In this document: piece by piece, positions 32,639 through 64,000 of the stretch | Layout of the letters: each line of letters opens with the position of its first letter | Numbering within the stretch: the first letter of the stretch is position 1 | Notes under the pieces: generated by a model | Told to the model about the DNA's origin: nothing | Database searches by the model: none | Seen by the model: only the letters and a program-made list of their open reading frames with translations | DNA from: Escherichia coli | GTDB taxonomy: Bacteria > Pseudomonadota > Gammaproteobacteria > Enterobacterales > Enterobacteriaceae | Direction: 5' to 3' (one strand) | DNA length: 64,000 nt | Assembly (NCBI RefSeq): GCF_051903065.1 | Contig: NZ_CP178438.1 | Made by a program: the position numbers and the translations under genes

Positions 32639-33501
32639 AACGATTTTCCTTTAACTTTATTCTTGATTTTTACAAGAAAAAGACATGTAATAAATAAAAC
32701 GAAAACAGTAAATTTTGTCTTTTTCTTTACAACTATTAGATTACTAATATTAAAAATGGGAATAAAATGAAAAACGGTTTGTTTAATGACATTAATACCA
32801 AGACCTTTTAGATTCAAGTTATTGATAACAAAAGCCATCGTGCCATTGATGTTTTTCCGCAAAAGATCAGTATAATTAGAAGTTAAACCTCCTGGTAAAT
32901 ATTCACTATAATAGATGATCTCATTGAAATATTTAAAGTAGCCATTTTCTAAAATTGAATTCCAAACCAATGCCTCAGTTATAAAATTTTCACCATCAAA
33001 AACAGGAAATTGATTTTTAAGTAAAGAATCACGTTTTATGATTAATGCTTTATCTCCCTTTGTACCTGCAAACTTTTCCAGAGAAATATTTTCAATTGTT
33101 TCCGCTTTACCTACAATCTCTTTTGTAGTTTTATACCCCCTCAGGAAAACCATCCCTTTACATTTATCATCAACAATTGCCTGGATTTTTTCATTGGCTA
33201 GAGCAATAGCGTTGGGCGTTAATATATCATCACTATCAACAATAAATATCCAGTTAAACGACGAAATTTCTATCCCTATATTTAAGGCTGTGTGTTTTCC
33301 ACCGTTCTTCTTATATCTATATATGATTTTAAATGGGGATGTCGACGCTATTTTGTCAATAACCTCTTTTAAATTATCAGTAGAACCATCATCAATTATC
33401 ACCCATTCAAAATCATAAGATTGTTGTGACATTAAGGATTCATATAATTCATAGACTAACAAAGCTCGATTGAATACAGGAGTAATTACTGAAATTGACA
33501 T
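32635..33501 (-). CDS. O-antigen glycosyltransferase, GT2 family
   Basis: 288 aa, MSISVITPVFNRALLVYELYESLMSQQSYDFEWVIIDDGSTDN. Confidence 0.75.
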   Translation of the reverse strand: MSISVITPVFNRALLVYELYESLMSQQSYDFEWVIIDDGSTDNLKEVIDKIASTSPFKIIYRYKKNGGKHTALNIGIEISSFNWIFIVDSDDILTPNAIALANEKIQAIVDDKCKGMVFLRGYKTTKEIVGKAETIENISLEKFAGTKGDKALIIKRDSLLKNQFPVFDGENFITEALVWNSILENGYFKYFNEIIYYSEYLPGGLTSNYTDLLRKNINGTMAFVINNLNLKGLGINVIKQTVFHFIPIFNISNLIVVKKKTKFTVFVLFITCLFLVKIKNKVKGKSL

Positions 33502-34793
33502 CTAACCCTTCCAAAATCATTAATCAAACGCCATGGGAAAATAATATACTTCAAACTCTGTAATTGCATTTTAAACATATTTTTAGTTTTTGGTATAAAT
33601 ATAAAAATCAAAAAGTTAGCAATAAAATAAGAAAGCAATGATACAGAAGCAGCGCCAACCGCTCCATATTTTGGTATAACAATGATATTCAAAGTTATAT
33701 TCAAAATTGCAGCAATAATGGTTTTTATCACTTCTAAATTAATATAATTCTTACTAAATAACCATTTAGATGAAAATGATCCTAAAAAAACAAAAACACC
33801 ACTCCACATATGAACCATTAATACTTGCGCCGATAAATCCATATTATCGCCATATAGTATTTTTATAATTATAGGTGACAGAGCAATCATAATAATTGCA
33901 CCATATATAGAGATTACACTTACAACTCCGCATATCCATTTCAAAAAGATAAATGATTCTTCCTCTCCTATTTTTTCAAGCTGAACAATTTTTGGAAAAA
34001 AAGCGTTCGCTATCAAACCTCCACACATAAACCAGATGGCTGATAACCTAAGAGCTGCACTAAATGCCCCAGCCTCTTTTGTACCTGTAAGAGACTCTAA
34101 TAAGATAACATCACACTGTGTAAATAGTGATACACTAATAGTTGATACAATGAGTTTACTCCCCATAAAAAAATACATTTTGACTAATTCTAAATCAATC
34201 GTCCATTTTGCTGAATAAGGGAAATAGAATTTGTATATAGTAAAACTAAAAAGAGCTTGAATTAAATAAAAGAAAACATAAGCATAAAAGACATACCAAC
34301 CAAAATATATACAACACCAAAGATAACCATATGAAACGGCCACACTACTTAGAATTGTGATAGCACGATATTTTGATTCAACCAATGCCGAATAATGAAA
34401 AAATATTACTTTAGCATACAAGCTAAAAAAATTAGCAACGATTAATATCGCCACGAATATAAAAGCGAACGGTATATCATAGTAAAAATAAATAACAATG
34501 GTAATAAAAGCAGATGCATATAATAACAGTCCTAAAAACTGTAAGAATAATGCACATCCAATCTCAGTGCCCGTTGATGATGGATTTTCAACAATTCTTT
34601 TAACTACGACTATATCAATGCCAAATAAAAATAACGATAGTAATATTTGTGAGATATTCATTATCGTTGCCCAACTACCCAAGATATCTAACCCATAGAT
34701 TCTTTTGATAGAAGCAAAAAGTGACAGCTGAAATACCAGCATGAACACTCGGTCACTCAACAACCAAAATAGGTTACTTAAGTATTTTTTCAC
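33486..34793 (-). CDS. wzx: O-antigen flippase (Wzx, MOP superfamily)
   Basis: 435-aa polytopic membrane protein, strongly AT-rich, apparent GTG start. Confidence 0.72.
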   Translation of the reverse strand: MKKYLSNLFWLLSDRVFMLVFQLSLFASIKRIYGLDILGSWATIMNISQILLSLFLFGIDIVVVKRIVENPSSTGTEIGCALFLQFLGLLLYASAFITIVIYFYYDIPFAFIFVAILIVANFFSLYAKVIFFHYSALVESKYRAITILSSVAVSYGYLWCCIYFGWYVFYAYVFFYLIQALFSFTIYKFYFPYSAKWTIDLELVKMYFFMGSKLIVSTISVSLFTQCDVILLESLTGTKEAGAFSAALRLSAIWFMCGGLIANAFFPKIVQLEKIGEEESFIFLKWICGVVSVISIYGAIIMIALSPIIIKILYGDNMDLSAQVLMVHMWSGVFVFLGSFSSKWLFSKNYINLEVIKTIIAAILNITLNIIVIPKYGAVGAASVSLLSYFIANFLIFIFIPKTKNMFKMQLQSLKYIIFPWRLINDFGRVRCQFQ

Positions 34794-61137: not shown

Positions 61138-62277
61138 TTACCAGTTATGAATGTCGCTGGCTGTATCCGTCATGTAACGGACACCGCTAATAGTTGGCAG
61201 CAACTGATTGATCAGACGGTTCCAGCGGGAAACCGGGGCGGTGGTGACATACACCACGTCATAAGGTTGCAGGCGGAATTCTGTCGCCATCACCAGCGAC
61301 GTGGCATCGGACATATCCAGCTGGTAGATATTGGCAATCTTGCCGTTACGCCCGCCCTCGCCTTTCAGCGGACGAATGACAAAGATGCCGCTGGCGTTGG
61401 AGGTGGTCATGTCGATGCCTTCAGCATTGCCCAGGGCTTCAGTCAGGGTCATGCCGCTAAAGTCCATTTTCAGGGTGCTCTGTTTCTTCACTTCACCCAT
61501 CACAAATACTTTCAGATCATCATTACGTGGCACGTAGAGAATATCGCCGGGGTAAAGCAGGCGATTCTGGTTGAGGTCGCCGTTTTGCATCAGCGCCTGC
61601 AAAGAAATGCGCTCTTCACGACCATTGTGTGTTAGCACCACGTTGCGCCAGTCAGCGGTGTCGGTCAGGCCACCTGCGGCGTTGATGGCATCGAGAATGG
61701 TCAGTGGTACGTTGGTAATCGCCTGTTGACCGGATTTATTCACCTGGCCGGAGATATAGGCTTTTTGCGAGCGGAAGGCGGCGATATTAACGTCCACCTG
61801 CGGGTCAGCGATGTACGTCGCTAAGCGCCCGGTAATATCACTGCGGATTTCAGCGAGCGTTTTCCCCACGACGTGAACCTTGCCGATATACGGGTAGAAC
61901 ATGGTGCCGTCAGGCTGTACCCAGTTGCCGGTGTCGCTGGAACTGCGGTACTGACCAGCTGGCGTGGTGAGTTCCGGGTGATCCCAGACGGTGACATTAA
62001 GAACGTCCCCCGGCCCGACGCGATACTGGTAATTCGCGATCTCGCTTTCCAGCGTCATATTGGGGCGCGCTACATTCGGGCGTGGGCGTAATTGGTCAAT
62101 CAGGCGCGGGGTCAGCGGATACACATTCACCATTTTGTCGAGATCGAAATCAGCGTCCTGCTGTTTGATGACGTCTTTGCCCATCGTCGACATATTGCTG
62201 CCCGGAAGTACTGTGCAACCGCTTATCAAGGTTACTGACACCAATAATGGCATCAATTTCATTTTGGATTTCATCAT
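61138..62277 (-). CDS. wza: Outer-membrane polysaccharide export lipoprotein
   Basis: 379 aa, lipoprotein signal ...[11 protein letters not shown]... Confidence 0.93.
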
Positions 62278-62439
62278 TGTTTATTTATCACTTTGGCAGA
62301 GTAATTATCCTGTGCACTATTAATAGCAATGTCGCAATGCACATTTACCTTGCAGTTAATTGAATAAAAATTTAACTGGCATCAGTCCTAAAAAAATTGA
62401 TTTCATCCGCAGGCTATTGACAGAATAATTCAGACTGGC

Positions 62440-62495
62440 TTTCAGGCATCCAGACACGCTACCGCCCCTGGCTTTTTAGCTACCAATACACTGAT
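62440..62495 (-). promoter_or_regulatory. JUMPstart/ops element in the wza 5' leader
   Basis: Plus-strand CACGCTACCGCCCCTGGCTTTTTAGCTACCA; reverse complement contains GGCGGTAGCGTG; about 180 nt upstream of wza. Confidence 0.75.
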
Positions 62496-62934
62496 TTAGC
62501 TTAATTTTTAAAACCCTCTCAACATACAGTCGTTGATGAGAAAGGGTTATTGCGGAAATTAACTTCCGAATATAAGGTGACATTATGGTAATTGAATATT
62601 GGCTCTCCAATAATGCAGGAGGAAGTGTTACAGCTAACGGAATAGCAGGCAAGGTAACAATTCGGCAATTGGCTATTTTTAAGAATTATATTAAGTGTCA
62701 TTCAATATGGTTTTTAGGAGTTTCTTTAGGTTGACAATATTTAATATTGCGTCTCCACATGCGATATTTCTTAAATAATGTTTTATTATTACCACTTTTA
62801 ATTCAGGGATAATGTGAGGTTATTACCCTCAAATAATATGAGATAAATAGTGCTACAACATTGCATTTTTGCCCCGATTTATCCATGATCGAATTGTGAC
62901 ATTTGTCATACAACGAATAGGTTTTGTACTTACT

Positions 62935-64000
62935 ATGGAATGGATTGCCGATCCGTCTATCTGGGCCGGGTTAATCACGCTGATTGTGATCGAACTGGTC
63001 CTCGGCATTGATAACCTAGTCTTTATTGCCATCCTCGCCGAAAAACTACCGCCGAAGCAGCGCGACCGCGCACGGGTTACCGGGCTGTTGCTGGCGATGT
63101 TAATGCGCCTGTTACTGCTGGCGTCAATCTCCTGGCTGGTCACCCTGACTCAACCGCTATTCAGCTTTCGCTCGTTTACCTTTAGCGCCCGCGACTTAAT
63201 CATGCTGTTTGGTGGTTTCTTCTTGTTGTTCAAAGCCACGATGGAGCTGAACGAACGGCTGGAAGGGAAAGACAGCAATAACCCCACGCAACGCAAAGGT
63301 GCGAAGTTCTGGGGCGTGGTGACACAAATTGTGGTACTGGACGCCATCTTCTCACTCGACTCGGTGATTACAGCCGTCGGGATGGTCGACCATTTACTGG
63401 TCATGATGGCCGCCGTGGTTATCGCTATCAGCCTGATGTTGATGGCCAGCAAGCCGTTAACGCAATTTGTTAACAGTCACCCGACCATCGTTATTCTCTG
63501 CTTAAGCTTCCTGTTGATGATTGGCTTTAGCCTGGTGGCGGAAGGTTTCGGCTTCGTCATTCCGAAAGGCTACCTGTACGCTGCCATTGGTTTCTCGGTG
63601 ATGATCGAGGCGCTCAATCAGTTGGCTATCTTTAACCGGCGACGTTTTCTTTCCGCTAACCAGACGCTGCGCCAGCGGACTACCGAAGCGGTAATGCGCC
63701 TGCTTAGCGGGCAAAAAGAAGATGCGGAACTGGACGCCGAAACCGCGTCCATGCTGGTGGATCATGGTAACCAGCAGATCTTTAATCCGCAGGAACGGCG
63801 GATGATTGAGCGGGTACTTAATCTTAACCAGCGTACCGTCAGCAGCATTATGACGTCGCGCCACGATATTGAGCATATCGATCTCAACGCGCCGGAAGAA
63901 GAAATCCGCCAGTTGCTGGAGCGAAATCAGCATACGCGGCTGGTGGTTACCGACGGTGATGACGCAGAAGATTTGCTCGGTGTTGTTCACGTTATCGACC
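62935..64000 (+). CDS. yegH: TerC-family membrane protein with C-terminal CBS/CorC domains, partial (runs off window end)
   Basis: ATG at ~62935 gives [34 protein letters not shown]...; open to the window end, so absent from the ORF track. Confidence 0.85.

Follow-up and report, generated by a model that had tools for sequence, protein, structure and literature searches.

A conserved RcsAB-box-like element close to the published RcsAB box upstream of wza in Escherichia coli

Introduction

The Rcs envelope-stress phosphorelay induces colanic acid in what has become a textbook model, and the wza/cps promoter is in wide use as an Rcs reporter. Rcs control of the wza promoter region is already known and well studied, and the exact operator bases matter both for reporter design and for annotation of the regulon. 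Which bases upstream of wza form the RcsAB box, and what are the other box-like sequences in the same interval? An earlier note on the DNA studied here, a 64-kb window (by which we mean the whole stretch analysed, 64,000 nucleotides), had singled out a weak RcsAB-box-like sequence at 62676-62692, about 400 bp upstream of wza, as a candidate for this box, and had called its exact site uncertain.

The published E. coli/Shigella wza RcsAB box is TAAAGAAACTCCTA (Table S1 of PMC4381331, compiling Wehland & Bernhard 2000 and Stout 1996). An RcsAB box has the consensus TaAGaatatTCctA, in which T1, A3, G4, T10 and C11 are the five most conserved bases. The structural RcsB motif is TN(G/A)GAN4TC(T/C)NA, in which N4 is a free centre, and the reported RcsB half-site is the right half of the box.

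Results

The wza-yegH spacer and its conserved blocks

The wza product encoded in the window is 99-100% identical to E. coli Wza (b2062 in the K-12 annotation), and the gene is separated from the divergent yegH by an AT-rich spacer of 657 bp (Table 1). This spacer is ~98-99% identical to K-12 MG1655 2137244-2137901, with a single 1-bp indel, and the K-12 RefSeq annotation places no promoter or binding-site features in it. The spacer was found in 4831 of 5426 complete E. coli genomes, about 11% being without it, and in one E. coli strain (NZ_CP184062.1) an IS1 insertion lies within it. To follow its conservation beyond the species, 80 yegH loci were collected, one genome per species, and the spacers of the 72 with a divergent wza were aligned; these Enterobacteriaceae species span more than 20 genera. 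Four upstream blocks on the wza strand, A, B, C and D, rise above a randomised background.

Table 1 Features of the wza-yegH region (window coordinates)
Feature	Position	Strand	Description
yegH (TerC family)	62935..64000	+	divergent from wza; continues past the window end
Block A	62760..62773	-	third RcsAB/RcsB-box-like site TAAGAAATATCGCA; TAGGAWATATCGCA in most other genera
Block B	62715..62728	-	published E. coli wza RcsAB box TAAAGAAACTCCTA
Block C	62676..62695	-	wza strand CTTAATATAATTCTTAAAAA; reverse complement of the flagged site
Block D	62612..62660	-	candidate sigma-70 core promoter of wza
Block D, -35	62652..62647	-	TTGCCT; followed by a 17-bp spacer
Block D, TG	62632..62631	-	
Block D, -10	62629..62624	-	AACACT; predicted start ~62617
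JUMPstart element with ops	62455..62493	-	Rfam RF01707, 57.3 bits, E = 2e-12
ops	62466..62455	-	GGCGGTAGCGTG; RfaH loading site in the wza leader
wza	61138..62277	-	ORF; ATG at 62277; first gene of the colanic acid (cps) operon

The published box is block B, not the flagged site

The published sequence TAAAGAAACTCCTA has a single exact match in the window, at block B, and a single match in K-12, identical and at the orthologous position (2137682-2137695). Conservation around it extends over 62711..62737, with TTGTCAACC before the box and AAAA after it (on the wza strand, TTGTCAACC to TCCTAAAAA), and block B is near-invariant in the 72 species. The sequence flagged earlier is present at its locus, but its interval was a few bases off: relative to the actual 14-mer, TAAGAATTATATTA at 62680-62693 on the + strand, it took in four extra upstream T and missed the final A. 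Read on the wza strand (62693..62680) this 14-mer is TAATATAATTCTTA, and it sits 403-416 bp upstream of the wza ATG, so the distance of about 400 bp and the placement in the Rcs-controlled wza promoter region both hold.

The flagged 14-mer and the published box therefore differ in sequence and in position. They lie 35 bp apart start to start and 22 bp edge to edge, with B further from wza. The earlier note had itself proposed aligning the interval to the experimentally defined K-12 box, and had accepted that a defined box elsewhere in the interval would refute its candidate; since the box is located elsewhere, that is what happened. That the flagged 14-mer is itself the experimentally defined RcsAB box activating wza is thus extremely improbable: it lies in the right promoter region and matches the consensus as well as the true box does, but the published sequence is a different one. 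Block A, which keeps all of the capital-letter positions of the consensus, was also considered as the published box and is ruled out by the Table S1 sequence (PMC4381331).

The consensus count does not single out block C

The flagged 14-mer matches the consensus TaAGaatatTCctA at 10 of 14 positions in either orientation, the number given earlier, and block B also matches at exactly 10. Counting consensus matches alone fails to pick the true box, as box and decoy tie. Within block C a degenerate left half is joined to the canonical right half TCTTA (TAAGA on the + strand), after which comes an A-tract. Four of the five core bases are kept; the exception is C11, replaced by A, in the + strand reading, and G4, replaced by T, in the wza strand reading. 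Block C is thus not a consensus box with all five core bases, a standard that cannot be strict because the validated wza box B is also without G4.

Taken alone, the consensus match of block C is at chance level, and the earlier description of the match as weak was right. In the whole window, 62 14-mers agree with the consensus at 10 or more of 14 positions; when the spacer is shuffled, 1.6 such matches occur on average, and 76% of the shuffled copies have one or more. At three mismatches or fewer, 5 matches were observed against 4.6 expected, and block C is not among them. The same 14-mer occurs again at 33740-33753, within an exact copy of the 15-mer TTAATATAATTCTTA (33739-33753) inside an AT-rich ORF (33486-34793, - strand) that presumably belongs to the O-antigen region. 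This second copy is there by chance and illustrates how readily AT-rich sequences of this kind give matches. Full-text literature searches with the site sequences returned unrelated papers only.

Conservation and clustering set block C apart from chance

In block C, 17 of 19 positions reach 90% conservation or more among the 72 Enterobacteriaceae, and the spacers flanking it are randomised. Its common variation is confined to box positions 7 and 9, both within the N4 centre of the RcsB motif, so that block C shows the pattern of a dimer site, with invariant half-sites around a free centre, across the 72 species. Its location, ahead of JUMPstart and wza, falls within the promoter region of an exopolysaccharide operon that is activated by Rcs.

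When the spacer was scored with a weight matrix derived from 16 published boxes other than the wza box, blocks A (9.9 bits), C (9.2) and B (8.4) came out on top, ahead of a next site at 5.9. Block C is second best in the spacer (9.2/9.0 bits, leave-one-out) and ranks within the top 9-15 positions of the 64-kb window; its 9.2 bits compare with 10.9-19.1 for the 16 sites that built the matrix and with 8.4 for the validated wza box when left out. Scores of at least 7 are retained by C in 65 of 72 species, by B in 48 of 72 and by A in 49 of 66.

Block A, with the top score of the spacer (9.9/9.1 bits), retains T1, A3, G4, T10, C11 and A14 and is conserved in 49 of 66 species. It varies at positions 2, 3 (A/G), 6, 9 and 13, as expected for TN(G/A)GAN4TC(T/C)NA, since the variation is limited to positions that the RcsB motif leaves free. 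The published box lies 45 bp downstream of it, and the Table S1 compilation (PMC4381331) does not list block A. Blocks A, B and C are packed into 94 bp, and at least three such sites within 120 bp occurred in 0 of 1000 shuffles. Their spacings are constant within 1 bp across species (A-B 53-55, B-C 34-36 and C-D 31-32 bp). Because of this conservation and clustering the flagged site stands above chance. As part of the colanic-acid (wza) promoter region, the flagged 14-mer is real and deeply conserved, and block C is an element separate from the defined box within the same promoter region.

Many RefSeq E. coli genomes annotate a 49-aa ORF (62585-62734, + strand), which overlaps B, C and D, as a hypothetical protein (WP_162829205.1). 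The call is almost certainly spurious, because the reading frame is disrupted in 69 of the 72 related species; a coding explanation for the conserved blocks was rejected on the same count.

A candidate core promoter and the role of block C

Block D (TTGCCT-17-TGnAACACT) lies ~70 bp downstream of block C. Scored with a simple sigma-70 model, it outranks every other site on the wza strand in each of the 72 species, always at the same aligned position, with a mean score of 10.5 against 5.7 for the next conserved position, and its two halves keep an unchanged separation in 61 of the 62 species scored. A simple promoter scan returned one site only (62609-62582), which is unconserved. An RNA-structure explanation for block D was tried and rejected (no significant fold, z = -0.96), the only Rfam match being JUMPstart. 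Block D would be either the wza core promoter or a second promoter.

With D as the core promoter, block C could be an auxiliary, promoter-proximal RcsB/RcsA (FixJ/NarL-type) box between the defined box and the promoter, a reading suggested by the half-site pattern, the matrix score and the fixed spacing, and to which we give about an even chance. Several points weigh against it. Block C is without the core G4 on the wza strand or C11 on the + strand; class I sites do not classically centre at -69.5, where C would lie, although the start from which this is counted is only predicted; and the Table S1 compilation (PMC4381331) gives one wza box only.

In the main alternative, which we regard as less likely, wza has a class II promoter dependent on RcsAB, and block C supplies its -10, discriminator and start. 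Box B, at -49 to -36, would then overlap the missing -35, the TATAAT inside block C at 62690..62685 would be the -10, transcription would start at ~62679 to give a leader of ~402 nt, D would become a second promoter or a leader element, and the resemblance of C to an RcsAB box would stem from AT-rich promoter sequence. The hexamer is perfect in Escherichia, and upstream of it there is no -35 (AAACCA), as is typical of activator-dependent promoters. The distance from the TC of box B to the first -10 base is 29 nt, identical to that at rprA when the annotated RprA 5' end is used; the literature places RcsB-only boxes just upstream of the -35, and the succession of B, variable stretch and C resembles activator site, spacer and -10. 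Across species, however, the hexamer is poorly kept: among the eight commonest variants of C, which cover 70 of the 72 species, A-11 and T-7 are both retained in only 28 of 70, and the commonest form is TATTAA. The alternative TAATAT, 3-4 bp nearer B, is universally conserved but in the wrong phase. A -10 function would also leave unaccounted for both the invariant TCTTAAAA downstream of the hexamer and block D itself, the best and universally conserved sigma-70-like site, with no RNA structure signal, and the rcsA promoter is a case where RcsAB works from well upstream.

In CFT073 the region upstream of wza is occupied by H-NS, which silences initiation; the CFT073 dataset gives the wza start site as 'NA'. 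Together with the A-tracts and AT-rich sequence, and with a consensus match that is itself at chance level, this occupancy is what would favour conservation of block C for another factor, be it H-NS/StpA nucleation on curved AT-rich DNA or a different regulator, the likeness to an RcsAB box being incidental. We think this quite unlikely: base-for-base conservation across genera over as much as 19 bp is not usual for H-NS sites, conserved half-sites around a variable centre fit a dimeric helix-turn-helix protein, and the TC(C/T)TAAAA motif of C is common to the validated box B and to the yjbE and rcsA boxes.

The leader and the yegH side

JUMPstart is conserved in most of the 72 loci, and its ops, for which an RfaH ChIP signal is reported in CFT073, lies ~189-190 nt upstream of the wza ATG. 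Between species the distance from block D to ops ranges from 154 to 191 nt, and that from ops to the ATG is nearly fixed. Downstream of ops, the wza 5' leader (62285-62440, - strand) contains long stretches at least 90% conserved across genera, such as AATTATTCTGTCAATAGCC, TTTTTAGGACTGATGCCAGTTAAAT and GCACAGGATAATTACTCTGCCAAAGTGATAAATAAACAATG, a degree of conservation that suggests post-initiation or translational control elements. Further conserved blocks lie directly upstream of yegH (62857-62934), for example CAATTCGATCATGGATAAATCG and AAAATGCAATGTT; they presumably belong to the yegH promoter or leader, and no Rfam family matched them.

Discussion

Upstream of wza, the published RcsAB box has two conserved neighbours that resemble it, and block C, the site flagged earlier, is one of these. 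Returning to block C as an auxiliary RcsB/RcsA box, we propose a model in which sites A, B and C, with their fixed spacing, would form an operator array upstream of the sigma-70 core promoter D, with box centres at ~-149.5 (A), ~-104.5 (B) and ~-69.5 (C) from the predicted start. Under conditions in which the Rcs phosphorelay is active and RcsA is stable, the box array would be bound by RcsA together with phosphorylated RcsB, and the occupied array could then recruit RNA polymerase to D, relieve H-NS silencing there, or both. RcsAB would thus act from upstream, as at rcsA, and possibly against H-NS. Transcription from D would yield a ~340-nt leader carrying JUMPstart/ops, the site at which RfaH loads. 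What we infer in this model is the binding of protein to C and to A, the position of the start and the mechanism of activation.

A bolder version, which we put forward tentatively and at somewhat less than an even chance, replaces the single RcsAB box with an array: in Enterobacteriaceae, three phased RcsB-family boxes (A, B and C) ahead of a conserved extended -10 promoter would drive wza, and C, the most conserved of them, would serve as the promoter-proximal contact or anti-silencing site needed for induction. The mildly new point is that the wza promoter appears to hold three conserved RcsAB-like boxes, where the Table S1 compilation (PMC4381331) gives one. Should the flagged box be functional, the known regulatory model would be refined and not changed.

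How does block C compare with Rcs boxes already described? Its closest likeness is to box B, with which it shares promoter region, strand, orientation, a 10/14 match and near-invariance across Enterobacteriaceae, as well as a canonical right half TC(C/T)TA (TCCTA in B) followed by AAAA and a degenerate left half; AAAA also directly follows the yjbE and rcsA boxes. The two lie 35 bp apart and differ in standing: RcsA/RcsB binding and a mutational requirement are known for B from the literature, whereas C is putative. Downstream of the yjbE box, a search for a class II -10 or for elements like C and D gave nothing clear. Among strong RcsAB boxes, exemplified by E. coli K30 galF TAAGATTATTCTCA (Table S1, PMC4381331) and Erwinia amsG TGAGAATAATCTTA, the galF box is identical at 12 of 14 positions to TAATATTATTCTTA, the majority form of C in other genera; C differs from both in having T for the core G at position 4. 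The Wza homologue search, whose best 120 matches were all close Enterobacteriaceae-type Wza, did not reach Erwinia amsH/amsG.

Two further systems offer contrasting precedents for the pair of B and C. At rprA and osmC, the RcsB box is RcsA-independent and class II, abutting the -35; the 29-nt geometry of rprA (box TGAGACGAATCTGA) is reproduced by B and C at wza, and under an rprA-like geometry C would be a -10 region and not a regulator site. The K-12 rcsA promoter offers a different arrangement. In the stretch described in the literature as RcsAB box1 it carries TTAATATAATTC, a 12-mer identical to 12 nt of C and overlapping the stop codon of fliR. The canonical box TAAGGATTATCCGA, with AAAAA directly after it, lies 33 bp downstream of this 12-mer. 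The shared 12-mer is of modest significance, as 5% of shuffles share some 12-mer between the rcsA and wza regions. Because the RcsAB box1 region lies ~170 bp upstream of the rcsA start, paired boxes do allow RcsAB to act from afar at this promoter. In its spacing, 35 bp against 33 bp, the B/C pair at wza resembles rcsA box1/box2, and the rcsA pair acts from ~-170; unlike at rcsA, the order of the canonical and the non-canonical box is reversed at wza.
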